From: an uncultured Clostridia bacterium
GTDB taxonomy: Bacteria; Bacillota; Clostridia; Oscillospirales; CAG-272
Direction: 5' to 3'
Length of the DNA stretch: 64,000 bases
Assembly (NCBI GenBank): GCA_947627475.1
Contig: CANQWE010000003.1
Coordinates: 1,005-65,004 of the forward strand
The notes beneath the pieces are model-generated. The model saw nothing but the letters and a program-made list of their open reading frames with translations, was not told the origin of the DNA and did no database searches. A program made the translations under genes and the position numbers. This document shows, piece after piece, positions 6,938 through 59,945 of this stretch (position 1 is the stretch's first letter; each line of letters begins with the position of its first letter).

Positions 6938-6949
6938 AAAAACGACAAC

Positions 6950-7090
6950 TGCATATAGGGGAGCTTGTAAACAGGCTGAGAGGAAGGTGCGACCTTCGAC
7001 CCATGAACCTGATTTGGATAATGCCAACGGAGGGAAGCGAAGGAAGACACTGCGGGAAGCTGCCAATTGGGGGCTTCCCGTATTTTTTTT
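6950..7090 (+). promoter_or_regulatory. TPP (THI-box) riboswitch with terminator expression platform
   Basis: GGGGAGC..CTGAGAGG..ACCC..GAACCTGATTTGGATAATGCCAACGGAGGGAAG matches the THI element core. It is followed by the hairpin CGGGAAGC/GCTTCCCG and a T8 run (7082..7090). Confidence 0.88.
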
Positions 7091-44100: not shown

Positions 44101-45034
44101 AGGAGAGGATACCCTCCATATTTTCCTTTTCATAAGCATTACTCCATATGTACAGCACCTTGTTGGAGCTCAGATTTACTTTCACAGACAAAAGCATGTC
44201 TGCAGAGAGCATTTCCCGCAGATACTCTTCCTGGTAGTACCGCTGTTCTGCCTCCACCTGAGAAGAAATATCTTCCGACACAGCCACTGCCCGAACAGGC
44301 ACGCCTGTATCGCTCAGGATGTTGGTATAGGTGATCTTCTCCCAGCGATATTTCCGGTCAGCTCCAAGAATACGAATAACGGCGCAGGCTTGCTTTTTTC
44401 CCTGACGCAGCCTTGTATACAAGGCTGCATACTTTTGGGCATCGTCCGGATGAATTACGCGGCTTTCAATCTGACTATCCGGCACATTGGGAATGACGCT
44501 TCCGTTTTTATGGAAGCGCCCTGCTTTTTCGGACTGTATAATACTGCCGGAAGCAAAATCGTATTCCCACACGTTGATCCGCGTCTGCTCAATGGCCGTT
44601 TGAAACCGCTTTTCACTCCAGATCAGCTGCTGTTCATAGTTTTTACGTTCATCGATATTGATCACCATACCGCTGAGCAGGGCTTTTCCATTGGTATAGG
44701 TGAGACCGGCGCTGGCGTGCAGCCATGCGCGCCTGCCGTCTTTTCGCAGCACCCTGTATTCCAGAGTAACAGAAGTCTGCTTTTTATCCATGGCGTCCTG
44801 GAGCTTTTGGGACACCGCTGCGATATCTTCGGGCACTACCACATTATGTGCCTGGTTGTGAAACAGCGTTTCAAATTCTTCTTTTGTGTAACCGTGGAGC
44901 TGATAGTAATAATCGTTTGCGTATAAAAGAGGAAAGCCATCTGTCAGGCTCGCTTGAAATATGCCGCCGATTTGGGCTTGGTCGATAAAAGACAGCACGT
45001 CTGTGCCGGTAATTTGCTTTTCCGTCATACTCAT
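41165..45034 (-). CDS. Multi-PAS GGDEF / degenerate-GGDEF / EAL c-di-GMP turnover protein
   Basis: Active-site RLGGDEFLIY, a second degenerate domain (LSGDSFAVL), and EAL motifs EALVRY, DDFGSQYSN and EGVEEQEQ. The start was chosen at MSMTEKQ (45034), just after the upstream small ORF. The track start is 45130. Confidence 0.88.
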   Translation of the reverse strand: MSMTEKQITGTDVLSFIDQAQIGGIFQASLTDGFPLLYANDYYYQLHGYTKEEFETLFHNQAHNVVVPEDIAAVSQKLQDAMDKKQTSVTLEYRVLRKDGRRAWLHASAGLTYTNGKALLSGMVINIDERKNYEQQLIWSEKRFQTAIEQTRINVWEYDFASGSIIQSEKAGRFHKNGSVIPNVPDSQIESRVIHPDDAQKYAALYTRLRQGKKQACAVIRILGADRKYRWEKITYTNILSDTGVPVRAVAVSEDISSQVEAEQRYYQEEYLREMLSADMLLSVKVNLSSNKVLYIWSNAYEKENMEGILSYESLFYSIAEHITHKNDKKRYLEQFSKDALSRAAMENQSSIYGEFRCTRRTGQIIWCAFRLMIISDPVTAEQVGILYIRDIDDRKKTELALQERAERDALTGLYNRQTVESMIHQRMFRHQSSADQCALFIIDMDAFKQVNDRHGHFVGDRLLQEIGRILREDSYGKCIAGRLGGDEFLIYADGVPNKQWATDLAEQICQRLNVQYVVDGKTLYTSASVGLVTAPCKDANFKEMFQQADAALYQAKSGGKATYVYFQDTQAPLHQTYILRDGCVARQHLGEQCMIDHVDDSVFVIDDATHDVLFMNQVARKTFDIEDYHGKKCYDILQGFSHPCVFCQSHLPGDKEFKIWEHRNTRLHKRFMIRDKIIRWDNRRVRLEIFTDMSRREFLMEAKIKAEKVLLECISILLTTCSLDAAIQAVMENLGKFYEADRAYFAKSQDMRTVLISDKDWHSPQASVITGENQRLEQSDLHRWLCGLRTVRVALFNSLEQMRDLYPVKYSVLQEKGVISFAAAAVFDEDGSLVGYIGIENPRSNLDNTTLLKSLSYFMQNEISKRNMREKQCFVDRHDPATGLLNWKSYTQCFSKIHPDAISSLGILMIDIHHLHLLNLEYGVDSGDRLLQSLARNLQEIFPNQTAFRLSGDSFAVLCQDITYESFFSQTHRLQQKMDREYPGSIIIGSAWTDVDIEPSQLQSHAYDNLSLAKQKRKECTTMDSRLRAIRLQRLKKALQEHQFQVYLQPKAQISSGKICGVEALVRYVDEKHGVVTPAKFIPQLEAGNNIRHIDFFVLESVCAMVCSWKKRGLPTLPVTLNFSRYTLAEENIVDKINEVVDKYKVERSSLGIEITESAGDMERRRLIEVSQQIVACGYRLYLDDFGSQYSNISILTSLPLHGLKFDKSVINDLYSNPATRLLVKNLIYACKEMKIDSIAEGVEEQEQLEILKAFGCTFAQGYLYNKPIPMADFEHKYLEVPMLTGQV

Positions 45035-45051
45035 CTCACTTGTTTGGGTTA

Positions 45052-45261
45052 TTATGCATCCCCAGCTGCTCCCAAAAAGTCCTGCACTACATCCATAAGA
45101 TGAAGGGAGGATAGGGAAGTGCGGTTGCACAGGATGACCAGTTTTTCCATTGCGCTTCTATCACAGGTCACGTCTTCAATAGTTATCTGCTCATTTGCGA
45201 TTCCATAGCCGGTATAAACAGTGTTCTCGCAGCAGTACGATCCTTCAGTCAAGTGATACAT
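45052..45261 (-). CDS. Small conserved hypothetical protein (69 aa)
   Basis: First ORF downstream of the riboswitch terminator. The ..YGIANEQITIEDVTCDRSAMEKLVILCNRTSLSSLHLMDVVQDFL pattern resembles a small Clostridia-specific family. The assignment is uncertain. Confidence 0.5.
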   Translation of the reverse strand: MYHLTEGSYCCENTVYTGYGIANEQITIEDVTCDRSAMEKLVILCNRTSLSSLHLMDVVQDFLGAAGDA

Positions 45262-45339: not shown

Positions 45340-45465
45340 CAAAAAACAATATAGCACTACAATACATGCAGTGCATCCATTGCTGCAACTGGCTGTCATG
45401 TCAGAGACGAAGACCCTATAGCTTTGCGTCGCCGATTTTCATCGGGTTTGCCAAATATTATTTTT
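45340..45465 (-). promoter_or_regulatory. c-di-GMP-I (GEMM-I) riboswitch
   Basis: Minus strand reads GGCAAACCCGAUGAAAAUCGGCGACGCAAAGCUAUAGGG. This matches the GEMM-I core (GGCAAAC, a GAAA tetraloop hairpin and ACGCAAAGC), for example Vc2 GGCAAACCAUUCGAAAGAGUGGGACGCAAAGCC. The 3' boundary is approximate. Confidence 0.85.
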
Positions 45466-45807: not shown

Positions 45808-45833
45808 TCCCATCGCAGAGTTGACTCATCTAA
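45808..45833. repeat. Left inverted repeat (IR-L), 26 bp
   Basis: TCCCATCGCAGAGTTGACTCATCTAA. Its exact reverse complement is at 47323..47348. Confidence 0.95.
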
Positions 45834-45871
45834 GAGACGATTTTGCACAGCATTTTGCTTATATTTACCGT

Positions 45872-45900
45872 ATTATAACACGATTTAGAAAAAATTGCAA
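45872..45900 (-). promoter_or_regulatory. Outward (leftward) sigma-A-type promoter inside the segment
   Basis: Minus strand has TTGCAA (45900..45895), a 17-nt spacer ending in TGT, then TATAAT (45877..45872), 39 nt from IR-L. Confidence 0.55.
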
Positions 45901-45998
45901 GGAAATTCGTATAAAAATTTTTAAAAAAGTGTGTTTTCTTGTACGTTGAACCGTCTGTACAACCGTCAAATTTATGCTTAATGAAAGGAGACTACGCA

Positions 45999-47102
45999 AT
46001 GTCAAAACGAGGAGAGAATATTTACAAGCGCAAGGACGGCCGGTGGGAGGGCCGGTATGTGAAAAGTCGGGACTCCAGTGGCCGGCCGCGTCTAGGCTAT
46101 GTTTACGGAAAAACTTATCGGGAGACAAAGGAAAAATTATGGAAAGAAAAGATGCAGCCATCCAGCTGCTCCAGCAGCCGCAATCTGTTTTCCCGATACT
46201 GCGACGAATGGCTGCTTCTACGCAGAAATTGCGTGAAACCGTCCACATATATAAAATATCATGGAATGATAAACAGGCAAATTAAGCCCACCCTGGGAAA
46301 GGTGTCCCTACAGCATATGAGCACCGTTTTGGCAGAGGAGTTCAGCCACTCTCTGCTAACAGAGAAAGGGCTTTCTCCGAAAACAGTAAAAGATATCCTT
46401 GTGGTTTTACGCGCCGTTTTACAGCACGCCAAGCGGCAGACGGGAGAGCATTTTCAGATGGAGGTAGTATATCCTAAGGAAAGCAAAAAAGAGATGCGGG
46501 TCATGTCCCTGGAAGAGCAGAAAAGACTTACGGCTTTTTTGCTGCGCGATCCAAGTCCGGATCAATTTGGAATTATGTTGGCTCTCCTTACGGGGATGCG
46601 CATCGGAGAGGTGTGTGCCCTGCGTTGGCGGGATATCTGTTTGGATACCGGAGAAATCCGTGTCCGGGCGACGATGCAGCGGCTGCAAAAATTAGAGCCT
46701 GTGGACGGAAAAAGGACGGAGATCGTGGTAGGAGAGGCAAAAAGCTATGCTTCCTGCCGAACAATTCCGCTGACGGGTACTGCTTTGCAGCTCTGTGGGA
46801 AAATGCGGATGGGCGATCCGAATGCTTTCGTTTTGACCGCCAGGGCAGATCGCTTTATGGAACCCAGAGCCTTGCAATACCGCTTAAAAAAATATACAAA
46901 GGCCTGCGGAATATCCGACATTCACTTCCATACTTTACGGCATACCTTTGCAACCCGCTGTGTTGAAGTGGATTTTGAAGTTAAATCTCTGTCAGAAATA
47001 CTGGGCCATGCAAGCGCCAAGGTCACATTGGACCGGTATGTCCATTCTTCTATAGAATTGAAAAGAAAAAATATGAAAAAATTAGCGGCAGCAGGGTTAT
47101 AA
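45999..47102 (+). CDS. Tyrosine site-specific recombinase (phage-integrase family)
   Basis: N-terminal IYKRKDGRWEGRY arm-type DNA-binding module. Catalytic GMRIGEVCALRWRD (R), HTLRHTFATR (HxxR) and GHASAKVTLDRYVH (H..Y). RBS AAAGGAGA. Confidence 0.9.
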   Translation: MSKRGENIYKRKDGRWEGRYVKSRDSSGRPRLGYVYGKTYRETKEKLWKEKMQPSSCSSSRNLFSRYCDEWLLLRRNCVKPSTYIKYHGMINRQIKPTLGKVSLQHMSTVLAEEFSHSLLTEKGLSPKTVKDILVVLRAVLQHAKRQTGEHFQMEVVYPKESKKEMRVMSLEEQKRLTAFLLRDPSPDQFGIMLALLTGMRIGEVCALRWRDICLDTGEIRVRATMQRLQKLEPVDGKRTEIVVGEAKSYASCRTIPLTGTALQLCGKMRMGDPNAFVLTARADRFMEPRALQYRLKKYTKACGISDIHFHTLRHTFATRCVEVDFEVKSLSEILGHASAKVTLDRYVHSSIELKRKNMKKLAAAGL

Positions 47103-47163
47103 AGACTATTTTTGTGCCGTCAAAATAGGCCGTCAAATTTCTGGAAAAAAAGGAGATTCATGC

Positions 47164-47192
47164 TTGAAAAATAATTTGATGCATGTTATAAT
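47164..47192 (+). promoter_or_regulatory. Outward (rightward) sigma-A-type promoter inside the segment
   Basis: TTGAAA (47164..47169), a 17-nt spacer ending in TGT, then TATAAT (47187..47192), 131 nt from IR-R. It points into the fibre operon. Confidence 0.6.
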
Positions 47193-47322
47193 AATAAAGA
47201 ATATAGGCAGAAGACAATAGATCGTCTCTTGCAGTGCTTTTCCAGAAGCGTTTTGCAGTGCGAGAGCAGAGGGGAATTGTTTGGCTCCTGCTTTTCGGCA
47301 GTAACGTGCGGTTGATCCTGTG

Positions 47323-47348
47323 TTAGATGAGTCAACTCTGCGATGGGA
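47323..47348. repeat. Right inverted repeat (IR-R), 26 bp
   Basis: TTAGATGAGTCAACTCTGCGATGGGA is the exact reverse complement of 45808..45833. Confidence 0.95.
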
Positions 47349-47446: not shown

Positions 47447-48286
47447 ATGGAAACGCAGCAGAAAAAGAATCCGATAAAAGCTGCCATTGTCTTGCTGGCA
47501 GTTTTGCTTGGACTCAGTATTATTGCGCTGGTCGGCCTGCTGTTTTATACGCATTTTGCAGACGGTAAGCCTGCTTCTGCAGCCGTACCCGGCAATGTAA
47601 TCGCCACGTCGGCACAGGCCGGCCGGGGCTCCTTGACACAGCTTGCCGCTGTGCCGCTGGCAGCAGATAATATTGCGGCGCAGCGCGCCGCGGCAACCAA
47701 TGCTGCAGCGCAGTCGGGCACGCAGATATCTGAAGAGGCGAAAGCAAAAGCGCAAATGCTGGAACTGTATAAGGGCCATGGGGCGGATACCGTTCCCTTT
47801 GCAGTGGATAACCTGTTCCCGGGAGATACTATTACCCAGTATTATGGCGTGAAAATTTCCCACAAAGAGGATGTGGACCTGCTCTTTCGTCCCGACGTAA
47901 CAGAAGAGACAAAGGCGCTTGGCGGCGTGCTGCATATAAAAGTTGCCAATATGGAAACGGGTGAAGTACTGTTCGACGGTAAATTTGCAGAGGCAGATGG
48001 GAAAGAAGTTTCCCAAACGATTGCAGCAAACGATGCAGAAGAAAGCATTTCCTACTTTGAGGTTACTGTATCCCTGGACCAGTCCGTAGGCAACGAATAC
48101 CAGGCAGCCAGACTGCTGGCAGATTTTCATTGGTATGCTGCCCAGGAAGAGGGTTTGATCCGCCCGCCCCAGACGGGGGACATCTTTATGATCCTGCTGG
48201 GGACCGTTATCGCAGTATCGGCAGCTTTGCTGACATTGCTTGTAGTGTATAAACGCAGAAAGGAGGGCGGGAACCGTGTCCGGTAA
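47447..48286 (+). CDS. PQTG-motif cell-wall-anchored protein with TasA-like core motif
   Basis: N-terminal signal/TM segment and an FPGDTITQYYGVKISHKEDVDLLF motif. C-terminal RPPQTG + hydrophobic segment + KRRKEGG. Paralogous in layout to 5367..6035. Confidence 0.75.
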   Translation: METQQKKNPIKAAIVLLAVLLGLSIIALVGLLFYTHFADGKPASAAVPGNVIATSAQAGRGSLTQLAAVPLAADNIAAQRAAATNAAAQSGTQISEEAKAKAQMLELYKGHGADTVPFAVDNLFPGDTITQYYGVKISHKEDVDLLFRPDVTEETKALGGVLHIKVANMETGEVLFDGKFAEADGKEVSQTIAANDAEESISYFEVTVSLDQSVGNEYQAARLLADFHWYAAQEEGLIRPPQTGDIFMILLGTVIAVSAALLTLLVVYKRRKEGGNRVR

Positions 48287-48862: not shown

Positions 48863-49059
48863 GGAGGTTTCTTATGAAACATGCACAAATGGAAAAAAAT
48901 TCCAGCGGGGGGGGGCTTTCAAACCCTGCAGTTAGGTAAATTGTCTGATTCCCCGGAAAAGGGTACAGAATAAATAGATGCGCTCCGGTTTTGGCGGCAT
49001 TTTCGGGGGCATCTTGTCCTGGAAAAGCCGACAAAATACATAAGGAGCGTGTCAGAAAA
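48863..49059 (+). repeat. Conserved leader module, copy A
   Basis: AGGAGGTTTC, ATG mini-ORF, G9, TTAGG..CCT hairpin, AGATGC..CTCCGG/CGGGGG..GCATCT hairpin, GCCGACAAAATA and the RBS. It aligns with copies B, D and E. Confidence 0.8.
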
Positions 49060-50613
49060 ATGACAACAAAGAAAAACACGAAACGCGCACTGCTCACCAG
49101 CGTGATGGCTACCGTGCTGTGTGCGGCAATGTTAATCGGCACCACCTTTGCATGGTTTACCGACAGCGTAGCCAGCGGGAAAAACAAGATCGTCGCTGGG
49201 AATCTGGATATTGATCTGGAATACAGCACCGATGGCGCAAACTGGAACGAGGTTGATGCCGACACCAATCTGTTCAAGCCTACCGAGGGCGTGGCCCTTT
49301 GGGAGCCCGGTCACACGGAATATGTCTATCTTCGGGTAAGCAACGCCGGCTCCCTGGCATTGAAATATCAGTTGGCCGTCAATGTATTTGGCGATGAGAA
49401 CGGCGGCGCGGAAAAAGAGTATACCAACAAAGAAGGCGGCAAGTTTCAACTCTCCGACTATCTGGTGTTTAGCCAGACGGATGGAGCAGCATCTGTAACC
49501 AAGCGGGAAGATTTGTGGATAAAAGACGCTGCTGCTGAAAAAGCAGCTATGGGCAAGCTGGACGGAGTCGGTATGACAGATATTCTGCTCTCCGGCGAAA
49601 ATAACGTCCTGACGCTGGCGGTATATATGCCGACACAGGTAGGAAACGAAGCAAATCAGCTCACCTTTGCAAAAGAAACGGAAGGCGAGCCTACCGTTTA
49701 TCTTGGCCTGACACTAAACGCTACCCAGACGCCGGAAGAGGAAGACAGCTTTGGCAAGACGTATGACGAGGGCGCATGGAGCGATTTTGAAAAGCAGCAG
49801 CATTTGGAGGATTTGTTAGAGGAAGGCTATGTTCCGGTTGAATCCAACAGCGCATTTACGGAAGCAACAAAAACAGAAGAGAAAATCGTAGTAACGAATG
49901 ACCTTGTTGTGGATCAAAACACACCAAGCATACAGGGAAGCACCACTATTGACTTTAACTATGGGCAGGTAACCCGCGTAACGGCCAGTGGCAACGGCTT
50001 GCTTGTTCAAAATTACGCTGCGGATATCACCCTGCAAAATGCCAATTTTGTCAGTGTAAAAGGCGGTGTGGTTGTCCGGGTTGAGGGCGCCAATCATTTA
50101 ACCGTGAAAAACAGCAATTTTATATGCGAAGCTGACGGGTCTACCGGAAATAAGATTTTTCAGTTGACGCCTTCAGAAGCAGATAAAAAAATGACTGTGA
50201 CTTTTGAAAACTGTGTTTTCGACACAGGATATGTTGCCTTTGAGGGATATAACAATATTACGGAATATGACGTTCGCTTTATAAACTGTAAATTCTTATG
50301 GGATGATAAAAATGGCAGCAGCTTTGTACAGGCCGGCAGCTATGCAAAGGGAAGTTACAGCTTTGAAGGGTGTACCTTTGCGTATACAAATTGGTGGAGC
50401 GGTCCGCTGGTACGGGTGAATAATCCAAACGCCCAAAGCAGCGTTACACTTCAGGATATAACGGTGAACGGTTCCGGCAGCAAAAAGCCGTATGTGGTAA
50501 GCGGATTCTCTGTTGTCGGCAAAAGAAATCTGACGGTAACTTCCACGGGAACAAATCAGTATTCTTACAATGACAGCATACTGGACTGGGAAACCGTTGC
50601 GGCAGAGAAGTAA
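49060..50613 (+). CDS. TasA-like N-terminal domain fused to right-handed beta-helix (PbH1-type) C-terminal domain
   Basis: MTTKKNTKRALLTSVMATVLCAAMLIGTTFAWFTDSV is a SipW-type signal. The C-terminal half has periodic ..NANF.., KNSNF, ENCVF, INCKF and EGCTF repeats typical of parallel beta-helix. Confidence 0.8.
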   Translation: MTTKKNTKRALLTSVMATVLCAAMLIGTTFAWFTDSVASGKNKIVAGNLDIDLEYSTDGANWNEVDADTNLFKPTEGVALWEPGHTEYVYLRVSNAGSLALKYQLAVNVFGDENGGAEKEYTNKEGGKFQLSDYLVFSQTDGAASVTKREDLWIKDAAAEKAAMGKLDGVGMTDILLSGENNVLTLAVYMPTQVGNEANQLTFAKETEGEPTVYLGLTLNATQTPEEEDSFGKTYDEGAWSDFEKQQHLEDLLEEGYVPVESNSAFTEATKTEEKIVVTNDLVVDQNTPSIQGSTTIDFNYGQVTRVTASGNGLLVQNYAADITLQNANFVSVKGGVVVRVEGANHLTVKNSNFICEADGSTGNKIFQLTPSEADKKMTVTFENCVFDTGYVAFEGYNNITEYDVRFINCKFLWDDKNGSSFVQAGSYAKGSYSFEGCTFAYTNWWSGPLVRVNNPNAQSSVTLQDITVNGSGSKKPYVVSGFSVVGKRNLTVTSTGTNQYSYNDSILDWETVAAEK

Positions 50614-50723
50614 TACATCCTTGTCCTCTCCCTCCGGTGAGGGAGAGGCAATCTAAGGGCATAAGCTATGGTTTGTGCCTTTGGATTGCCTGCGTGGAAC
50701 AACATATACGAAGGAGACTTTCC

Positions 50724-51503
50724 ATGAAAAAAGCACTCCATATTGCAAAAAACGTACTGACATGGCTTATTGTAGTCCTGGCGGTATGTATGATGATTTT
50801 TACCATTGTATCCAGTATGACCTTTAATCGCGTAGACCGGGACCTCTTCGGATATAAGGCGTTTATCGTTCTGTCCGACTCTATGAGCGCAACGGATTTT
50901 GACGCAGGAGATTTGGTGCTGGTAAAGGAAGTAGATCCGGAAACCCTAAAGGCTGGCGACATCATCGCGTATCAGTCCACCAATACGGAAAACTACGGCG
51001 AGGTGGTCACCCATAAGATCCGGGAGCTGACCACCGATGCCCAGGGTAATCCCGGGTTCGTTACATACGGCACGACGACGGATCAGAACGACGAGAACGT
51101 AGTCACCTACGACTTTGTACTCGGGAAGTATCAAAAGAACCTGCCGGGGGTGGGAGCGTTCTTTCAGTTTTTAAAAACCACACCCGGATATATCGTCTGT
51201 ATTTTTCTCCCGTTCCTGGCGCTGATCCTCATACAGGGGATCAACAGCATCCGACTGTTCCGCCGGTATAAAAAGGAACAGCTGGAGGAAATCGAGGCCC
51301 AGCGGGAACAGCAGAAGCTGGAGCTGGAAGAAGAGCGGGAACGCCTTGCCCGGCAGCAGGCTGAGTCTCAGAAAATGATGGCGGAGCTGATGAAATTGAA
51401 AAACGAACTGTCTGGGGAGGCGACCCCGGCAGAACCGGAAAAACCACTTCAGGAAGAATCGGCGGCAGAAAAGGACTTGGAAAAAGATACAGGCGGCCAA
51501 TAG
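50724..51503 (+). CDS. sipW: Signal peptidase I, SipW (archaeal/ER) type, with extended charged C-terminal tail
   Basis: N-terminal TM segment, IVLSDSMSATDFDAGDLVLV (Ser box), VVTHKI (His box) and a C-terminal TM. A coiled-coil-like tail of about 85 aa follows (KKEQLEEIEAQREQQKLELEEERERLARQQ..). Confidence 0.85.
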   Translation: MKKALHIAKNVLTWLIVVLAVCMMIFTIVSSMTFNRVDRDLFGYKAFIVLSDSMSATDFDAGDLVLVKEVDPETLKAGDIIAYQSTNTENYGEVVTHKIRELTTDAQGNPGFVTYGTTTDQNDENVVTYDFVLGKYQKNLPGVGAFFQFLKTTPGYIVCIFLPFLALILIQGINSIRLFRRYKKEQLEEIEAQREQQKLELEEERERLARQQAESQKMMAELMKLKNELSGEATPAEPEKPLQEESAAEKDLEKDTGGQ

Positions 51504-51597
51504 GCCGATGGTATTGTAAAAGAAGGGTCCATAGAGAGCGGCTGGTGGATGCCTTTATGAAACGGCGTGTTTACTGTAAAATAAAAAAATATTTCCT

Positions 51598-51879
51598 GTA
51601 CATCCCCTTTGTGGGGGTGCGGGGATCCAAGGGCATAGATTTGTTGTGCCCCTGGATCCCCGAAGTCGGGAATCCACAGGAGGTTTCATTATTATGAAAC
51701 ATGTACAAATGGTAAAATATTCCATCGGGGGGGGGTGCCGATCCCCACAATTAGGCGATTTGCCTAAGCTTCTGGGGAAAGGGTTTATAGCAAAATAGAC
51801 GCGCTCCGATTTTGGCGGCATTTATCGGAGACGTCTTGTCCCGGGAAAGGCCGACAAAATATTAAAGGAGTAGAGAGAA
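51598..51879 (+). repeat. Conserved leader module, copy B
   Basis: Hairpin 1 CATCCCC..GGGGGTG, hairpin 2 GGGGATCCAAGGGCA..TGCCCCTGGATCCCC, AGGAGGTTTC, mini-ORF, G9 and the AGACG..CTCCGAT/ATCGGAG..CGTCT hairpin. Confidence 0.85.
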
Positions 51880-53282
51880 ATGACAACAAAGAAAAGCACA
51901 AAGAGCGCACTGCTGTCCAGTGTGCTGGCTACAGTTCTGTGCGTGGCCATGCTCGTTGGAACAACCTTTGCATGGTTTACAGACAGCGTAACAAGCGGGA
52001 AAATAAAATCGTCGCAGGTAATCTGGACGTAGAGCTGGTTGACGCACAGGGAAATTCCCTGGAAGGGGAAGTGCTGGGCTGGAAAGCATTTGACAATCGG
52101 GAGCAGGAGCAGATCCTGTGGGAGCCTGGCTGTACCTATAATACAGAGGAATTTTACATTAAAAATGACGGCAGCCTAAATCTAAAATTTAAGTTTGCAG
52201 TTTCCGGTATCCAAGGAGACGCGAAGTTGCTGGAGGTTATTGACTTCACCGCTATGGCTGATACAAGCTGGTTCAAGTTTAATACCGGTGCCGTTTCTAT
52301 ATCCCCTGAAAGCAGCGAATTTGACCTTTTGAAGGGTTGTGATATTGATACGCTGTTTTACGGTAAGATGCACTTTGACGAATATACTCTTGCGCCTGGG
52401 CAGACAGTTGGTCCGATCACCCTGACCGGTCATATGCAGGAAGAAGCGGGGAACGAGTATCAGGGCCTGTCTATCGATGGCATCGCCATTACGCTGATTG
52501 CCACACAGGCAACGGGTGAGGAAGACAGCTTCAATGGTACATATGACAAGGATGCCAAATTTCCTATAGCCGGAACGGAAGAAGAATTGCAGACACTGTT
52601 GAAAGCGGCGCAGCCTGGTGATACAGTAACGATCGATTCAGAATTTACAGGAAATGTTGTTGTTCCGGAGGGGCTGCAGGACGTAACGATTGCCTCCATG
52701 AACGCGCAGGTAAATAAAATCGAGATAAAAGCCGACGGAATCGACAATGTTACTTTTGACGGATTTGAATTTGACCAGGTAACGGGAAATGCAATCGAGC
52801 TGGCAGGGGAAGCTGCAATCGGTACAGTTACGTTTAAGGATTGCCATATAACTGGTACAGGTGTGAAAAGCGGAAGAGGCTTTTCCGGTGCGAACCAAAA
52901 TACAGAGTTGGTTTTTGAAAATTGCTTCTTTACCGATATTGGATATCCAATCTATGATGCGTTTGGCGGATATAAGAGTTTGACGGTTCGCGGATGTACT
53001 TTTAGCAACAGTGCCGCTGCAGGTTCAAAGTCCTGGGCCATGATGGTGCAGGGTGCATTGGATACTGTGGTAATTGATGGTTGTACCTTTAACGGATGCA
53101 CCGATGGTATTTTAAAAATGACTGGGGGCTGTGCTACATCCTTTACATTCACAAATAACACTATGATCAATTGCAGCGCCCATGATCCATATGGTTTGTT
53201 CCAAATGAAATTTGGTGAAACTTGTGTAAAAAATGCTTCCAATAACACATTTGACGGGGAAGACTTTCCCTTTGATTTTTAA
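51880..53282 (+). pseudogene. TasA-like/beta-helix paralog with a 1-nt frameshift just after the signal peptide
   Basis: The ATG at 51880 gives MTTKKSTKSALLSSVLATVLCVAMLVGTTFAWFTDSVTSGKIKSSQVIWT*. The mature part (NKIVAGNLDVELVD.. to 53282) is intact in the +1 frame. Compared with paralogs, GGGAAAAACAAGATC has become GGGAAAATAAAATC. Confidence 0.75.
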
Positions 53283-53524
53283 AATAAATTTTGTGGTCTC
53301 TCCCGCAGGGGAGAAGAGATAATCTAAGGGTAAGACAAATGTGTTCATTGCCGGAAGACAGGTATATCCTGTAACCCCCTAAAAATTTAAACAGGCTCCT
53401 CACCGAAACGGTGAGGGGCGATCCAAGGGCATAACGATAGGTCGGATGTGCCTTTGGATCGCCGTATTGGCAGCAACATCCTGCAGTTGTTGCAGGAATG
53501 AGATAAATTGAGGAGAAATTTGCG
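53283..53524 (+). repeat. Divergent leader, copy C (hairpin pairs only)
   Basis: A degenerate pair (TCTCTCCCGCAGGGGAGA; ATAATCTAAGGGTAAG..) is followed by an intact pair (CCTCACCGAAACGGTGAGG; CGATCCAAGGGCA..TGCCTTTGGATCG). It lacks the G-tract module. Confidence 0.6.
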
Positions 53525-55111
53525 ATGTCACAAAGAAAACATACAAAGAAAGCCCTGATCACCGCAGCTGTATCGATCGGTCTGTGCATAGCGATGCTTT
53601 TTGGAACAACATTGGCGTGGTTTTCTGACAATAGTGCCGGCAGCAGAAATAAATTCGTGGCAGGCAATTTGGATGTGGCGCTTTATAATACCACTGGGGA
53701 TACGGAAGCATTGGTCCATCCCGATGCCCCTTTATTCGGCACAGCTGCCCGGTGGGAGCCCGGTCAGGTAAAATATGTGAACCTGCGCGTGGACAATACG
53801 GGAACGCTGGCGCTGAAATATCAGTTAGGCATTCGCATTGCCGAGGAAAAAGGCAGTATAAATGTGTTTGGCGAGAAATTTTTTCTCTCTGACTTTATGC
53901 ATTATGCAGTTGTTCCTGGCAAACAAATGTATACCGACGACGAAGCAGGAAGGCAAACGGCCATTGCTGCGGCAGAGCAAGCGGGAGCAGCGCCTATATC
54001 TCAAAGCCCCTTGTCCCAGGACGGATTCCTGTGCGCAAAGGGACAGGATACCGATACGGCTTCCAGTAAAAATGAGATGACATTGATCGTTTATATGGTG
54101 CAGGATAATGAAAACCGGGCCAACGTAAGAAAGGGAGAGGAAGAGCCCGTTCTTGACTTGGGTGTGACACTGTCTGCGACCCAAGCCCCCAGCGAACAGG
54201 ACAGCTTTGATGATGGCTATGACCAAGACGCAGGCATTGTCGCAGTTACGCCGGAAACGGCACAGGCAGCGCTGGACGCGGCGGATTTTGGGGAAACACT
54301 GTACCTTGCACCTGGAAACTACGGAACTTTGTATCTGGATCAGGCAAAGGAAACCAGCCTTGTAAGGGACAGACAGTACTCCCGTACCTTGGAAAATGTG
54401 TCTATTGTGGGCCAGGCCGGCGTTATAATAGACGGAATTCAGTTCAAAACCGGCCATATTTACGGAGAAGGTACAAACCCGGTGAATGGACAGCCGTTGA
54501 ATGGGACTGCAAATTCCTATTACAGCACGCTGCATATCAAGAATCTTACCATAGAAAAAGTAGCGCTGACAAAGTCTATTTATATTGGTGCAGATACCTC
54601 TTCCTTCCTGAACCTGGATGGGCTTACCGTACGGGATTGTTCCTATACCGGTACAGACCGTACGCACAATGATAAGACCAATAAACTGCTGCATATAGCA
54701 GGCGGCGAAAACTATATGAGAAATATTCTTGTGGAAAACTGCACTGTACATACTGCTTTCCAGGGGATATATACTTACGGAAACCGAGATATCGTTGTGC
54801 GCGGATGCACCTTTGATAATTTGGGTCACAACGCTGTTGCCATTCAGGATGCCTCTCCGGATCAGGGAGCTACGATTTATAATGGCGGGACAATTCTGAT
54901 TGAAGGCAATAAGATTTCTCAGGTATCCGACCGGGTTTTCCGGGTTGGAAATTTTCGGGAAGGATCTATCCGATTTGTGAATAACAGTATTACTGCGTCC
55001 GGTGATGCAAGTGACTCTGCAAACCCGATTTATAAAGCAACGTCTGTGGCTGCCGGCGCTGAGGTTTCCTTCACAGGAAATACAGTGGACGGAGCAGAAT
55101 GGGCTGGCTGA
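53525..55111 (+). CDS. TasA-like N-terminal domain fused to beta-helix C-terminal domain (divergent paralog)
   Basis: MSQRKHTKKALITAAVSIGLCIAMLFGTTLAWFSDNS. C-terminal repeats VRDCSY, VENCTV and VRGCTF. Confidence 0.8.
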   Translation: MSQRKHTKKALITAAVSIGLCIAMLFGTTLAWFSDNSAGSRNKFVAGNLDVALYNTTGDTEALVHPDAPLFGTAARWEPGQVKYVNLRVDNTGTLALKYQLGIRIAEEKGSINVFGEKFFLSDFMHYAVVPGKQMYTDDEAGRQTAIAAAEQAGAAPISQSPLSQDGFLCAKGQDTDTASSKNEMTLIVYMVQDNENRANVRKGEEEPVLDLGVTLSATQAPSEQDSFDDGYDQDAGIVAVTPETAQAALDAADFGETLYLAPGNYGTLYLDQAKETSLVRDRQYSRTLENVSIVGQAGVIIDGIQFKTGHIYGEGTNPVNGQPLNGTANSYYSTLHIKNLTIEKVALTKSIYIGADTSSFLNLDGLTVRDCSYTGTDRTHNDKTNKLLHIAGGENYMRNILVENCTVHTAFQGIYTYGNRDIVVRGCTFDNLGHNAVAIQDASPDQGATIYNGGTILIEGNKISQVSDRVFRVGNFREGSIRFVNNSITASGDASDSANPIYKATSVAAGAEVSFTGNTVDGAEWAG

Positions 55112-55407
55112 TCGATCTTTTTCCGCCTCTCTCCGGAGGGGCGGGGATCCAAGGGCATAACAAAGACAGGGTTTGTGCCCTTGGATCCCTGAAGCCGGGA
55201 TAACATAGGAGGTTTCTTATGAAATTTGCACAAATGGTAAAAATTTCCAACGGGGGGGGGCTGTCCATTCCCAATGTTAGGCACTTTGCCTGATTTTTTG
55301 GGAAAGAACGTCATAGCAAAATAGATGCGCTTTGGTTGTATCGGCATTTTCCAAAGGCATCTGATCCGGAAAACGTCGACGATATTACTAAAGGAGCGTG
55401 TCAGAAA
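55112..55407 (+). repeat. Conserved leader module, copy D
   Basis: Hairpin 1, perfect hairpin 2 GGGATCCAAGGGC/GCCCTTGGATCCC (55144..55189), mini-ORF, G9 (55252..55260) and the hairpin AGATGC..CTTTGG/CCAAAG..GCATCT. Confidence 0.85.
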
Positions 55408-57252
55408 ATGACAACAAAGAAAAGTACGAAACGCGCACTGCTGTCCAGTGTTCTGGCTACCGTGCTGTGCGCAGCAATGCTGATCGGTACGACCTTTGCA
55501 TGGTTTACCGACAGCGTGACATCCGGCAAAAACAAGATAGTTGCTGGGAATCTGGATATAGAGCTGTACCAGGTCGAGGGTAGCACGGAAACCCCTGTGA
55601 CAGCAGATACCAATCTGTTCCGGGAGGATGCGCTGTGGGAGCCTGGACATGTAGAGGTAGTCACTTTGAAGATGGCCAACCTGGGCACACTGGCATTGGA
55701 ATATGCGCTGGATATATCCATTGCAAATGAAACAGCCGGCACAAATGCAGCCGGAGATCCTTTCCGGCTTTCTGATTATATTCAGTTCGCTGCTGTTGAC
55801 GGGAACAATACATATGCAACCCGAGAACAGGCGATTGCGGCCGCAGAGGCAGCCGGCTCCACACCTATTTCCCAGTTGGCAGCGGGGAAAAGCGGCGTAC
55901 TGTATCCTGCAGACAAAGCCACTGCTGAAAATCCTGCATTGGAATATGTTACGCTGATCGTTTATATGCCCGAGACTGTCGGAAACGAAGCCAACTACAA
56001 AACCGGCACGACTGCGCCCACCATTGATATGGGTATTTCCCTGCTGGCTACACAGACGCCCTATGAGGCAGACAGCTTTGATCAGAAGTATGACGATAAA
56101 GCCGGCGAACTGAATTTCACAGAGCCTGGGGACTATACGGTTGACCTGGACGAGACACCCGCATACGGCAACGGCGATTATGGCGTAATCCAGGCGCAAA
56201 AGGATGTAACAGTCAATATTACCGGCAGCGGTGCGGTCAAGGCGCAGGAAAGTTCGGACAAATATGCAATGGCCGTGGCCGCGTATGAGGGAGGCACTGT
56301 CAATATCTATGGCGGTACCTATACACAGGAAATTACCGGTTCAGATGAACAGTATGACATGATTTATGCTGCGTACGGCGGAAATATCAATATTTACGGC
56401 GGTACCTTTAAGAGCGTCACACCCAAGTGGACATTGAACGTCCGGGACGCGGATTACCAGAGCGGCGCGTCAAAAATTACTGTGTACGGAGGGACCTTCT
56501 ATAAATATAACCCGGCCCAGAGCGATACAGAACCCGGCGGCCCAGTGAGCTATGTTGCAGACGGCTACACTGTTATACAAAACGGGGATTGGTATACTGT
56601 AGTAAAAGCAGCAGTTGACAGCGCAGAGGCGCTAAAAGACGCAATTGCAAGTGCAAATGACGGGGATACCATCGTTCTGACGAAGGACATAGAGCTGACT
56701 ACATCCGCGCGTACCATCGATAAAAACATTACCTTCGACGCCCAGGGGAATACAATTTCCGGTGTACCCATGTATATTGGCAGTACAAACAATGTCACCG
56801 TGAAGAATGCCGTGTTTGACAACGCGAAGGGAACGAAGGAATCCTGTGTTTATGTAAATAATACCAGCGGCATAAATGTTTTTGAAAACTGCGTGTTTGA
56901 AAATACCAATTGGGATGTCATTCAAATGACCGGCAACATTGAAGGGGCACAGCTGGTTGTCAACAACTGTACTTTTGCCAATGCTGCACAGCGGTATATC
57001 CATGTGGAAGCTTTGGAAAACGGCAGTCCGGATTATAATACAAATGTAAAAGTTACCATTACCAATAACACATTTGGGCAAAATCCTACCGGCAATGATG
57101 CAATTGGTCTGTATTACATAGCTGACGCAGGTATTACTGCATATAACAATACATTTGCATCAGAAGAACCTACAATATATATCTGCAGCGCATCCATTTC
57201 TCCGTCCATTTCTCAGGAGGACGCCATCGCGATGTTTACTGCAAAAAAGTAA
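55408..57252 (+). CDS. TasA-like N-terminal domain fused to beta-helix C-terminal domain
   Basis: MTTKKSTKRALLSSVLATVLCAAMLIGTTFAWFTDSV. C-terminal repeats ENCVF and NNCTF, plus IYGGT repeats. Confidence 0.8.
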   Translation: MTTKKSTKRALLSSVLATVLCAAMLIGTTFAWFTDSVTSGKNKIVAGNLDIELYQVEGSTETPVTADTNLFREDALWEPGHVEVVTLKMANLGTLALEYALDISIANETAGTNAAGDPFRLSDYIQFAAVDGNNTYATREQAIAAAEAAGSTPISQLAAGKSGVLYPADKATAENPALEYVTLIVYMPETVGNEANYKTGTTAPTIDMGISLLATQTPYEADSFDQKYDDKAGELNFTEPGDYTVDLDETPAYGNGDYGVIQAQKDVTVNITGSGAVKAQESSDKYAMAVAAYEGGTVNIYGGTYTQEITGSDEQYDMIYAAYGGNINIYGGTFKSVTPKWTLNVRDADYQSGASKITVYGGTFYKYNPAQSDTEPGGPVSYVADGYTVIQNGDWYTVVKAAVDSAEALKDAIASANDGDTIVLTKDIELTTSARTIDKNITFDAQGNTISGVPMYIGSTNNVTVKNAVFDNAKGTKESCVYVNNTSGINVFENCVFENTNWDVIQMTGNIEGAQLVVNNCTFANAAQRYIHVEALENGSPDYNTNVKVTITNNTFGQNPTGNDAIGLYYIADAGITAYNNTFASEEPTIYICSASISPSISQEDAIAMFTAKK

Positions 57253-57555
57253 GCGGCTTGAAAATCTGACCCGCATCCCCCTATAGGGGATGCAGGGATC
57301 CAAGGGCATAGATTTGTTGTGCCTTTGGATCCCCGAAGGCGGGAAAACACAGGAGGTTTCATTGTTATGAAACATGTACAAATGGTAAAAATTTCCAACG
57401 GGGGGGGGGCTGTCAATCCCCACAGTTAGGCAAATTGCCTGATCTACCGGGGAAATGTTACAAAGTACAATAGATGCACTCCGATTTTGACGGCATTTTT
57501 CGGAGGCGTCTTGTCCCGGAAAAAGCCGACAAAATACCATAAAAGGAGTGTCAAA
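57253..57555 (+). repeat. Conserved leader module, copy E
   Basis: Hairpin 1 GCATCCCC-CTATA-GGGGATGC, hairpin 2 (57295..57333), mini-ORF, G10 (57400..57409) and the hairpin AGATGC..CTCCGA/TCGGAG..GCGTCT. Confidence 0.85.
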
Positions 57556-59022
57556 ATGACGACAAGGAAAAGTACGAAACGCGCACTGCTGTCCAGTGTT
57601 CTGGCTACCGTGCTGTGCGCAGCAATGCTGATCGGTACGACCTTTGCATGGTTTACCGACAGTGTAATCAGTGGGAAAAATCGGATTGTCGCGGGAAACC
57701 TGGACGTAGATCTTATAATGGATAAGCTGGACGGAGAAGGGTACGTAAGTATCGCCGACGGAGAGGGAGACATTTTTCAGGAAGCGGACGTTGCGCAGAA
57801 TAGCAACGCCACCCTTTGGGAGCCCGGCAAAACGCAAATTGTGTATCTTGGCGTGCAAAATAAGGGAAGCCTTGCACTGAAATACAATATTTTGCTGCAG
57901 GTGACGGATGGCGGTCTAATTGGTTCTTTGGAATACGCTGTAATTGATGGAATCAAGGCTGCAGATTTAACAGCGGCAAACTGGACAGAGTTGAAAGCGG
58001 CTGCATCCAGCACCGGTGATATTGCTGCCGGTAGCATGATCGCTGCACCAAACGGCTGCCTGGATGAGATTGTAAACGGACAGGCAAATGAAACCGATTA
58101 TTTTGCCTTGGCGGTACATATGAAGGAAGAAGCCGGCAATCAGTACCAGGCCAAAGACATTACTATTGATCTGACGGTAGTCGCAACCCAGGCTACAGCA
58201 GAGAGTGACAGCTTTGACAATCAATATGACAAGGAAGCGCCGTTGGATTTTGTTCCGGTTGCAAACGCAGATGAACTGCAAAATGCCATCGATGCGGGAA
58301 AGGCCGTTTCACTCACAGCGCCTGTGGAATTGGAAGGCGCTTTGCAGGCAACCGGCGATGTTACGATTAACGGAAACGGAAATGCGCTTACCATCCCCAG
58401 TGGTACCGACCGTGTGATCAATATTACCGGGACAGAGAATCCTGTTACCATTGCTTTGTCCAATGTAGATATTCAGGGCCCCACTACCGGGTCATACACA
58501 AGAGGTATTTCTATCTATGACGCGAAAAAAGTGAAGCTGGTTATGGACAATTGTTCTCTCTCTGCCAACTACTACGCCCTCAATGTGGCAAGCGCAAGCG
58601 ATGAGGCAGAGGTTGTAATTCGTAATTCCACATTATCCGGATGGTGTGCCTTCCAGACACATTCTCCCAACGCAAATGTGACATTTGAAAACTGCACATT
58701 GGTTGGATTGAACGATAAGGGATATAATGCAGAGGGCTGGAATGATTTTGCAACGGTTGTAATAAACGAATTTAGTGAAGGCAATCCCGATCCAGAGGGA
58801 GCCCACGATGGCACCTTTACATTTAAAAATTGCCGGATTGAAGCCAATCAGACTACAGGGAACAAACAATATTTTCTGTCTGTCAGAGCAAAAAATACCA
58901 CATTAATTGCTGAAAACTGTACTTTTTATGTTGATGGAGAAAGAATCAGTCAGGACAAAGTGCCCGACTATGTTGCGGTTTATCCGGAAGTAATGGAGAG
59001 TTTTCAGTTTACATTACGGTAA
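57556..59022 (+). CDS. TasA-like N-terminal domain fused to beta-helix C-terminal domain
   Basis: MTTRKSTKRALLSSVLATVLCAAMLIGTTFAWFTDSV. C-terminal repeats MDNCSL, RNSTL, ENCTL, KNCRI and ENCTF. Confidence 0.8.
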   Translation: MTTRKSTKRALLSSVLATVLCAAMLIGTTFAWFTDSVISGKNRIVAGNLDVDLIMDKLDGEGYVSIADGEGDIFQEADVAQNSNATLWEPGKTQIVYLGVQNKGSLALKYNILLQVTDGGLIGSLEYAVIDGIKAADLTAANWTELKAAASSTGDIAAGSMIAAPNGCLDEIVNGQANETDYFALAVHMKEEAGNQYQAKDITIDLTVVATQATAESDSFDNQYDKEAPLDFVPVANADELQNAIDAGKAVSLTAPVELEGALQATGDVTINGNGNALTIPSGTDRVINITGTENPVTIALSNVDIQGPTTGSYTRGISIYDAKKVKLVMDNCSLSANYYALNVASASDEAEVVIRNSTLSGWCAFQTHSPNANVTFENCTLVGLNDKGYNAEGWNDFATVVINEFSEGNPDPEGAHDGTFTFKNCRIEANQTTGNKQYFLSVRAKNTTLIAENCTFYVDGERISQDKVPDYVAVYPEVMESFQFTLR

Positions 59023-59201
59023 TGGATGGAAGACATAGGATTTTTAATATATAGAAGTCTGCAAGTTACACCATCCATAGGAGTTAAAATCTACGACAAA
59101 TATTCCCAAGCCTCTATAGAGGCTTGGGAGGCAATCAAAGGGTATAATATCCATTGTGTCCTTTGATTGCCTTGACGCTGGCGGAAAGGGGAGCAAATAC
59201 A

Positions 59202-59945
59202 TTGAGAAACTTATTGAAATTCCGAACCAAAGAGAAACCTACTGATGATAATATCATGCGGCTGATCCTGCCCACTGTTTGGGGGATCGTTCTCTGCATG
59301 GCTTGTTTGTGCGGCACCACCTGGGCGTGGTTTTCCGGAGTAATGGCATCCGGTACAGCTACCGTGCAGGCGGCGAACTATGCGGTCAGTGCAAAGGTGA
59401 CCGACGCATCCGGTACAGAGGTGTCTGCGCAGAGAAACGATACATTTACACTGGCCGCGGAAAAAAGCTATACAGTGGAACTTACTGTAGTGGGAACAGT
59501 CGAGAAAACTGCCGGCTACTGCAGGGTCACCTATCAGGATAAGCAGTATTATACTGGTGCCATGGAAAAAGGCGATACAATACAGTTTTCTGTGTCTGCC
59601 GGAGCAGAAGGAGGCACACTGTCTGTTTTGGGCCTTTGGGGAACTTACAGCGGAGAGGTCACGCTGTCGGCGGGGAATACCATTATGGGCAGAACCGGAA
59701 CGAATCAGGTTCCTTCCAATAGCGAACCTGCCATGTCTGCAGATACATCAGCAGATACCCCGCAAGCCGAGGTGACAACGGCTGACACGGAAAAAGACGA
59801 GACGGGCACAGAGGAGACGTCAGCGCCTGTAGATGAAACCACCCAGGCACCGGAAGATACAACCGGTACTTCTCAAGAAACTACCGGAGCAGAGGAAGAC
59901 ACCACCCAGACAGAACCCTTAGGCGAGACAACATCCATACAATAA
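59202..59945 (+). CDS. Small SipW-type-signal protein with acidic Thr/Glu-rich tail
   Basis: ..ILPTVWGIVLCMACLCGTTWAWFSGVMAS junction. The C-terminal 70 aa are low-complexity T/E/D-rich. The start is uncertain: TTG 59202 after GGGGAG, or ATG 59256. Confidence 0.6.
   Translation: MRNLLKFRTKEKPTDDNIMRLILPTVWGIVLCMACLCGTTWAWFSGVMASGTATVQAANYAVSAKVTDASGTEVSAQRNDTFTLAAEKSYTVELTVVGTVEKTAGYCRVTYQDKQYYTGAMEKGDTIQFSVSAGAEGGTLSVLGLWGTYSGEVTLSAGNTIMGRTGTNQVPSNSEPAMSADTSADTPQAEVTTADTEKDETGTEETSAPVDETTQAPEDTTGTSQETTGAEEDTTQTEPLGETTSIQ

Follow-up and report, generated by a model that had tools for sequence, protein, structure and literature searches.

Why do several neighboring genes for TasA-like fibre proteins, whose coding regions have largely diverged, share a long conserved region in front of their start codons? 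The question arises from a 64,000-nt stretch of DNA of an uncultured Clostridia bacterium (GenBank assembly GCA_947627475.1, contig CANQWE010000003.1, positions 1,005 to 65,004; the window in the following), in which a cluster of same-strand genes between 47.4 and 60 kb encodes the large paralogs A to E, all of which combine a SipW-dependent signal peptide (TIGR04088) and a camelysin/TasA-like N-domain with beta-helix C-terminal parts. Directly 5' of some of these SipW-dependent TasA/camelysin-like genes lies a conserved structured leader RNA of about 165 to 300 nt on the sense strand. It represents a new family of structured leader RNAs with a modeled switch that hides the Shine-Dalgarno (SD) sequence of the gene, and a trigger consisting of a poly-G tract and an upstream open reading frame (uORF) is plausible. 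From 5' to 3', the leader comprises a uORF with its own SD that extends through the poly-G tract, the stems P1 and P2, the hairpin P3 with the conserved loop AUUUUGGCGGCAUUUU, the tail AAAGCCGACAAAAU, and finally the SD and start codon of the gene.

A covariance model (CM) recovered precisely four copies in the 64 kb (E values of 1e-24 to 1e-31) and no others, namely, those before paralogs A, B, D, and E (Table 1), which is where the original prediction had placed them. The four upstream regions align over their full length, and the uORF motif ATGAAACATGYACAAATGG occurs four times with at most two mismatches, compared with 0.06 expected occurrences. The predicted elements were all located at their places, including tracts of 9 to 10 Gs and a small hairpin in every copy; a correction concerns copy A, which has GGAGG instead of AGGAGG. 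The extents proposed for copies B, D, and E include two further hairpins, hp1 and hp2, which had gone unmentioned and are absent from copy A. Paralog C is preceded by hp1 and hp2 only, with no leader 5' of the gene, and the same is true of the sipW gene.

Sequence identity among the window copies amounts to 74 to 84% in the uORF part, 56 to 73% in P1-P2, 65 to 82% in P3, tail, and SD, and 56 to 84% overall. In the paralog genes, the first 150 nt (signal peptide) are 79 to 88% identical at the nucleotide level, and the remainder about 52%. This combination of diverged bodies with a conserved 5' module of leader and signal peptide suggests either gene conversion or a strong constraint on the 5' end. 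Judged by these comparisons, the leader copies are not the product of recent duplication, because the paralogs have diverged so far beyond codon 50 and because about 30 contigs of many uncultured Clostridia have this leader as well. Were the similarity a functionless leftover of duplication or gene conversion that recently affected the paralog 5' ends, the even greater likeness of the first 150 coding nucleotides would fit, as expected under 5'-end homogenization, but P1-P2 keeps its structure despite its low identity between the window copies, the pairing is maintained by double changes, and many other organisms have the same leader. Cross-organism covariation has already refuted this reading, and we give it practically no credence.

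Structure was assessed on a MAFFT alignment of 23 leaders and a CM-fitted alignment of 35 distinct sequences. RNAalifold predicts P3 on the MAFFT alignment, and 96.4% (MAFFT) and 97.5% (CM-fitted) of its cells are paired, with double changes in 6/10 and 8/10 pairs, respectively. P2, with the window consensus TTAGGY...GYCTRA, is 80 to 83% paired and shows double changes in four to seven of its seven pairs. Pairing of P1 is 62 to 64% overall, with register slips; three core pairs covary (CG/UA), and by eye its arms read CCCC/GGGG, CCCUC/GAGGG, CUCUC/GAGAG, UUCCCAA/UUGGGAA, ACCCU/AGGGU, and UUUUUCUAU/AUGGGAAAA across lineages. For the whole structure, 0/500 shuffles equaled the observed values, slid controls were 35 to 55% paired, and the sense strand of the leader folds better than the antisense strand. 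Within the window, the inner stem of P3 is CTCCGA/TCGGAG in copies B and E, CTTTGG/CCAAAG in D, and CTCCG/CGGGG in A, and the loop GGCATTT is kept, exactly as first described. These compensatory changes generalize to 23 to 35 homologs from other organisms and thereby bear out the earlier proposal that selection acts on pairing rather than on a peptide. The window and six homologous loci were searched with Rfam 15 at gathering and permissive thresholds (E up to 5 for the window), and neither the leaders nor hp1/hp2 were matched, in agreement with the view of a structured cis-regulatory RNA outside the known classes.

Beyond the window, the leader was found, with CM scores of 70 to 155 bits, in a related ENA contig (L001; homologous loci are given L numbers), seven loci of metagenome-assembled genomes (MAGs) from GTDB, and 20 metagenome contigs, at least one of them labeled human gut. 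In L001, one of the paralogs is preceded by the 3' half of the leader, and the GTDB loci belong to Clostridiales/Eubacteriales MAGs, Ca. Howiella intestinavium, and a rabbit-gut Clostridia MAG. The assumption of a locus-specific element has thus to be abandoned, since the family is spread over many uncultured Clostridia; a very recent duplication with nothing outside the strain, which had been named as a finding that would refute the idea, is incompatible with these occurrences and with the diverged paralogs. The collection scans linked the tail motif to the FAWFTD codons of the signal peptide. Their pattern prescribed these codons, the tail, and the SD, and did not contain the uORF, G-tract, P1, P2, P3, or P3 loop. 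The genome scan also gave about 27 chance matches in unrelated phyla, which were told apart by the absence of a TasA-like gene, and viral contigs scanned with a P3 pattern gave no match.

How could such a leader act? When the last 100 nt from P3 to the start codon were folded, the minimum free energy (MFE) structure was one long SD-sequestering hairpin in 10/10 leaders (four from the window and six others). In this extended helix, the 5' arm of P3 (..GCRCUCC..) pairs with the SD of the gene and the following bases, and the P3 loop pairs with the tail. In 125-nt folds of 20 leaders the extended helix was the MFE structure in most cases, with L058, L020, L024, and L040 as exceptions. The window folds have z-scores of -6.3, -2.8, -2.2, and -4.9, and if P3 is enforced, the best fold falls short of the extended state by 6 to 17 kcal/mol in stability. 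The probability of an unpaired SD is at most 0.03 in 11/17 core leaders, compared with about 0.45 to 0.55 if the upstream sequence is shuffled. Loop and tail, the latter of the form GGAAA.GCCGACAAAATA and divergent in copy D, are 92.5% complementary over 14 pairs, compared with 44 to 55% in slid controls. In copy D and in L049a, both with the inner stem CUUUGG, the 5' arm keeps its complementarity to AAAGG at the SD. An extension of the anti-SD helix (alignment columns 133 to 138 with 217 to 222) performed no better than column shuffles and was rejected.

The 3' module is accordingly modeled as a two-state translational switch, in which P3 is predicted to free the SD and the extended helix to hide it. 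Because P3 covaries and yet is thermodynamically disfavored, the simplest reading would be a kinetic switch with P3 forming first. Among the modes of action originally suggested, translation control fits best, since the SD-sequestering helix is predicted in nearly all copies, and antitermination does not fit, since no hairpin is followed by a U-tract. A terminator role was rejected for P3, P2, hp1, and hp2 on the same grounds; P3 is followed by UUGUCC or CCGG, and the sole terminator-like call, P2 of copy D, is not conserved. No intrinsic terminator was found between leader and gene, as would be characteristic of terminator/antiterminator attenuators (T-box, trp, PRD/RAT). A much shorter conserved motif upstream of other paralogs in the related loci (L019 at 938 and 5367, L039 at 3127, and L042 at 2456), TTGTCATTGA(C)AAAAT followed by GGAGG, resembles the TTGTC...GACAAAAT tail of the leader and may be a minimal version of it.

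The hp1-hp2 module is present in most intergenic gaps 3' of gene A, often 5' of the uORF. Hairpin hp1 is GC-rich and has a different sequence each time; it is abutted by hp2 (GGCAATCAAAGGGCATA...TGCCTTTTGATTGCC type), which has an 18-bp stem with nine covarying pairs and conserved G.U pairs (28 copies, many organisms) and no U-tract after it. The kept G.U pairs, which would be A.C mismatches on the other strand, indicate a sense-strand RNA, and the module may be an RNase III/processing or 3'-stability site. A role of hp2 as an integron attC or recombinase site was rejected: GTTRRRY/RYYYAAC cores are absent on inspection, the G.U pairs are strand specific, and a recombinase is missing at other hp2 loci. 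The distribution of this covarying hairpin raises the question whether the leader, too, serves mRNA processing or stability; in that case the leader hairpins, together with hp1/hp2, would be RNase sites or 5'/3' protection in a long polycistronic RNA and would give each cistron its own half-life instead of switching translation. A strong promoter 5' of the entire cluster and the lack of promoter-like sites on the + strand of the leaders would agree with this, and stable 5' hairpins beside a strong SD are known stabilizers in Bacillota (aprE, ermC, cryIIIA STAB-SD). A stabilizer, however, needs no specific conserved loop and tail, no uORF, and no SD-burying helix, and unlike in a pure stabilizer-enhancer the most stable fold hides the SD; we regard this explanation as distinctly unlikely.

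The 5' part of the leader is dominated by the G-tract. The four tracts are the sole runs of at least eight Gs or Cs in the 64 kb, and in most lineages the tract is preceded by an SD and an ATG (7 to 11 nt apart in the window copies), so that the uORF translates the Gs as Gly codons. In six homologous contigs with flanks of 93 to 99% identity the tract is 8, 9, 10, 10, 10, and 12 nt long, and a second homolog pair differs by G10 versus G8. As read from these alignments, such a length polymorphism is the signature of a slippage-prone, hypermutable repeat. The tract length alters the frame and the stop site of the uORF: the three frames after the tract end at a UAG in the 5' arm of P2 (GUUAG), at a UAA or UGA in or just past the 3' arm of P2, or at the foot of P3. 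The P3-foot stop is a UAG, UGA, or UAA that ends at most 3 nt from the first P3 pair (at +1, overlapping, in 12/15). The frame is open from the tract to this stop in 15/20 leaders, compared with 5.5 expected from shuffles, a result that is suggestive and no proper test, as the sequences are related. In the window, uORF B is in the long frame and uORFs A, D, and E stop in P2; the differing mini-ORF frames after the G-tract had been noted before, and the stops end where Table 1 lets the uORFs end. Because the SD, the start codon, and the three-frame stop pattern are conserved, translation of the uORF is probably part of the mechanism and its peptide is not.

The peptide itself is poorly conserved across leaders. 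If the long frame (32 to 35 aa, e.g., MKHVQMVKYSIGGGCRSPQLGDLPKLLGKGFIAK) were a real small protein, phase-varied by the G-tract with the hairpins as a secondary matter, then its openness up to the P3 foot in the same 15/20 leaders and the likeness of the long-frame peptides would be readily understood. However, conserved DNA yields such a likeness in any frame, P1 and P2 change by paired substitutions within the frame, the tract-to-P3 spacing varies by non-multiples of 3, and the uORF is curtailed to 4 to 11 codons in L008, L052a, and L029, which retain the RNA elements. Such a protein is highly improbable.

Comparable arrangements are known from other leaders. In ermC, cat, and secM-secA, the position of a ribosome on the leader decides between helices, one of which buries the SD of the gene; the ribosome comes to a halt on a specific arrest peptide in response to an inducer or a secretion defect. 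The Clostridia leader shares with these attenuators a short SD-preceded upstream uORF and alternative helices, one of them predicted to sequester the SD of the gene. It differs in that the proposed variable is the reading frame and stop site via the G-tract, and sequence and fold are unrelated; the poor conservation of the peptide argues against an arrest peptide. In the attenuation of Bacillus subtilis pyrG, reportedly described by Meng, Turnbough, and Switzer in 2004, RNA polymerase adds non-encoded Gs and the target is a terminator. Common to both systems is a 5'-side poly-G that can pair with a downstream pyrimidine-rich strand otherwise engaged in another helix, but here the Gs are encoded, the G:CCCYC pairing is unsupported beyond composition, and there is no terminator. 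As a riboswitch, the leader offers a covarying multi-stem RNA and a predicted expression platform, and no known aptamer class matches.

The G-tract also invites comparison with repeat-based regulation. The leader of the Helicobacter pylori tlpB mRNA contains an untranslated G-repeat of variable length that is bound by the trans-acting small RNA (sRNA) RepG and tunes expression posttranscriptionally (PMC8295292). Both cases involve a variable homopolymeric G-repeat in the mRNA leader of a surface or behavior gene, but the present tract lies inside a uORF, any partner would act in cis (CCCYC), and organisms and genes are unrelated. As in poly-G/poly-C contingency loci of Campylobacter, Neisseria, and Haemophilus (e.g., C. 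jejuni; bioRxiv 10.1101/2022.11.09.515450), the tract length differs between near-identical genomes (G8 to G12) and alters a frame; the homopolymers of about 8 nt or more (G9, G9, G9, and G10) and the lengths of G8, G9, G10, and G12 in homologs are those of a contingency locus, and the tract length may in addition affect the expression of the TasA-like genes. Classical contingency repeats are located in the regulated ORF or in a promoter spacer, whereas here the tract belongs to a uORF distinct from the regulated gene and about 150 nt 5' of it, and for this reason a relay via the RNA fold is needed. A literature search on SipW/TasA together with phase variation, homopolymeric tracts, riboswitches, or RNA motifs found nothing relevant.

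The reading that we tentatively prefer, although it stays slightly short of probable, is that of a two-state translational leader with the G-tract-set frame of the uORF as input and phase variation of each paralog, of which we infer the trigger. The ribosome on the uORF would be the input to the switch, and the length of the G-tract modulo 3 would set its frame. In two frames it would terminate inside P2, and in the third it would read on as far as a UAG whose G takes part in the first pairing of P3. The proposed relay from frame to fold is based on the anti-SD strand of roughly 11 nt, which would be covered by a ribosome that terminates there, at the P3 foot; with this strand covered or melted, the SD would become accessible, or the fold would at least be reset. 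The G-tract could then, through slipped-strand changes, turn each paralog on or off in a heritable manner and independently of the others, and the model assigns the ON state to no particular frame. The more far-reaching claim is that the leader is a heritable, reversible switch, in which poly-G modulo 3 determines the uORF stop (P2 or P3 foot) and hence whether the anti-SD strand hides or frees the ribosome-binding site of the paralog, so that a contingency repeat would act via a uORF-to-RNA-fold relay and not via the regulated ORF or its promoter. This we consider conceivable, if rather doubtful.

Several observations weigh against the preferred reading. The loop-tail helix has a single covarying pair (CGGC/GCCG to CGGU/ACCG in L001 and L039), and the anti-SD:SD core (CUCC with GGAG, 4 to 6 bp) is nearly always complementary and shows no covariation beyond column shuffles. 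Two further pairings that appeared in single-sequence folds, UUUCC/GGAAA and G-tract/CCCYC, were about 70% paired, with equally high slid controls, and were rejected as composition effects. Because the scan patterns fixed both the tail and the SD, the conservation of these parts is to some extent a matter of ascertainment, and the result on the open frame was drawn from related sequences that share a conserved AAUAG motif. An intact uORF or a long G-tract is missing in L008, L052a, L029 (no SD), L033, and L058. Five loci that were fetched via the closest protein homologs, irrespective of a leader (L059 to L063), have none, so the leader is sporadic though widespread among TasA-like genes; L004 likewise lacks it. 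All carriers of the leader are uncultured. Finally, L020 (Ca. Howiella) has a strong promoter, TTGCAA-17-TATAAT, directly before P3. L019 retains the tail and SD only. The P3/tail/SD core can therefore exist without uORF input, which keeps a trans-acting factor in play.

Such a factor, i.e., a metabolite, a second messenger, a CsrA-like GGA-binding protein, or an sRNA, would act on P1-P2, the P3 loop, or the tail and set the balance between P3 and the SD helix, the uORF and G-tract being accessory or incidental. The multi-stem domain covaries, the loop and tail are conserved strongly beyond the needs of pairing, and GGA motifs occur in the 3' arms of P1 and P3 and in the SD. L020, L010, and L019 have the core but neither uORF nor G-tract, in L008, L033, and L052a the core is accompanied by a degenerate tract, and a cyclic di-GMP (c-di-GMP) signaling gene with its own riboswitch adjoins the cluster. 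No Rfam aptamer matches, however, and the conserved nucleotides lie mostly in one loop and the complementary tail, where self-complementarity already accounts for them. Moreover, most lineages keep a long hypervariable G-tract inside an SD-preceded uORF with three-frame stops, which is unexpected if the tract is incidental. We therefore rate a trans-acting factor as unlikely, if worth keeping in mind, and retain the two-state leader with uORF input.

The c-di-GMP signaling gene is located on the opposite strand. It encodes a 1,321-aa PAS-GGDEF-EAL protein (41165-45130, - strand) and follows a c-di-GMP-I riboswitch (RF01051, 60.6 bits) at 45381-45462 (-), the sole place matched by this model, which hits no leader; gene and riboswitch adjoin both the fibre cluster and a segment at 45808-47348 that is likely invertible DNA. 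The 34-nt inverted repeats of this segment (45808-45841 and 47315-47348) are 91% complementary and enclose a tyrosine recombinase gene (45939-47102, + strand). Two strong sigma-70-like promoters inside the repeats face outward: TTGAAA-17-TATAAT (47164-47192, +) toward the TasA-like cluster and TTGCAA-17-TATAAT (45900-45872, -). A thiamine pyrophosphate riboswitch is present elsewhere in the window (6947-7052, +).

In view of the recombinase, the leader might be a DNA-level element, either an internal promoter with the G-tract as spacer or an operator or recombination site for the neighboring enzyme. Leaderless TasA-like clusters indeed have homopolymers at promoters, namely, a G7 within the TTGACA-N18-TACAAT spacer in L004 (about 9920-9960) and a C15 beside the -35 element of the first gene in L001 (about 5685-5700), and repeat-based phase variation of TasA-like clusters seems to recur via different routes. 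The + strand of the leaders, however, contains no sigma-70-like promoter, and inspection revealed no consistent -35/-10 pair around the G-tract; the better folding of the sense strand and the kept G.U pairs of hp2 speak for RNA. The tyrosine recombinase was not seen in the other fetched loci with leader or hp2. A function at the DNA level is thus very unlikely.

The gene order of the cluster was found again in contigs of other uncultured Clostridia, and the closest relatives of the window proteins in a protein collection search, 58% identical, stem from Clostridia MAGs. Paralog B shows a 1-nt deletion near 52003 relative to the other paralogs (GGGAAAATAAAATC versus GGGAAAAACAAGATC), which breaks the gene up into two ORFs (51880-52032 and 51939-53282); either B is a pseudogene or the assembly is wrong here. 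The frameshifted paralog is also the sole one whose uORF is in the long frame.

Table 1. Leader elements, hairpin modules, and genes of the TasA-like cluster (positions in the window)
Feature	Position	Strand	Evidence or remark
Leader copy A, before gene A	48863-49059	+	Without hp1/hp2; alignment; CM match 48899-49059, 126.7 bits
Leader copy B, before gene B	51601-51879	+	With hp1+hp2; CM match 51719-51882, 140.4 bits
Leader copy D, before gene D	55123-55407	+	With hp1+hp2; CM match 55244-55408, 112.7 bits
Leader copy E, before gene E	57273-57555	+	With hp1+hp2; CM match 57392-57558, 139.1 bits
uORF A	48874-48939	+	MKHAQMEKNSSGGGLSNPAVR; SD GGAGG 48863-48867; stop in P2 loop
uORF B, 34 aa	51694-51798	+	Long frame; SD 51678-51683; stop TAG overlaps first P3 pair
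uORF D, 24 aa	55219-55293	+	SD 55207-55212 (AGGAGG, as in B and E); stop TGA in P2 3' arm
uORF E, 20 aa	57367-57429	+	SD 57351-57356; stop TAG in P2 5' arm
G9 tract, copy A	48907-48915	+	
G9 tract, copy B	51727-51735	+	
G9 tract, copy D	55252-55260	+	
G10 tract, copy E	57400-57409	+	
P1-P2, copy A	48923-48964		
P1-P2, copy B	51742-51778	+	P1 (TCCCCA/TGGGGA) around P2 (TTAGGC/GCCTAA)
P1-P2, copy D	55268-55304		
P1-P2, copy E	57417-57453		
P3, copy A	48976-49014		
P3, copy B	51797-51836	+	Loop TTTTGGCGGCATTTA; 5' arm is anti-SD strand; RNAalifold, pair counts
P3, copy D	55323-55362		
P3, copy E	57472-57511		
Tail and SD, copy A	49021-49047		
Tail and SD, copy B	51843-51870	+	Tail GGGAAAGGCCGACAAAATA, complementary to P3 loop; gene SD AAGGAG
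Tail and SD, copy D	55368-55396		
Tail and SD, copy E	57518-57548		
hp1+hp2 before SipW signal peptidase gene	50625-50690	+	
hp1, copy B	51601-51619		
hp2, copy B	51620-51662		
hp1+hp2 before gene C	53398-53463		
hp1, copy D	55123-55144		
hp2, copy D	55145-55188		
hp1, copy E	57273-57293		
hp2, copy E	57295-57333		
hp1+hp2 after gene E	59104-59171		
LPXTG-type protein gene	47447-48286		
Camelysin-like protein, 182 aa	48276-48824		
Paralog A, TasA-like	49060-50613	+	
SipW signal peptidase gene	50724-51503		
Paralog B, TasA-like	starts 51880	+	Frameshifted
Paralog C, TasA-like	53525-55111		
Paralog D, TasA-like	55408-57252	+	
Paralog E, TasA-like	57556-59022	+	
Another distant relative	about 59154-59945		

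Overall, abundant uncultured gut Clostridia have a family of cis-regulatory RNAs in front of genes for TasA-like extracellular fibres. This family shows clear covariation and matches nothing in Rfam, and the literature searches made for this analysis brought up no description of it. Should the proposed relay hold true, simple-sequence repeats would have a new route of gene control, in which an RNA switch is steered by the frame of a mini-ORF 5' of the gene. One cluster with four leaders of this kind behind an invertible promoter segment could then yield many combinations of surface or biofilm fibres, and commensal Clostridia would vary their matrix or surface fibres individually for each gene, in addition to a switch based on DNA inversion.

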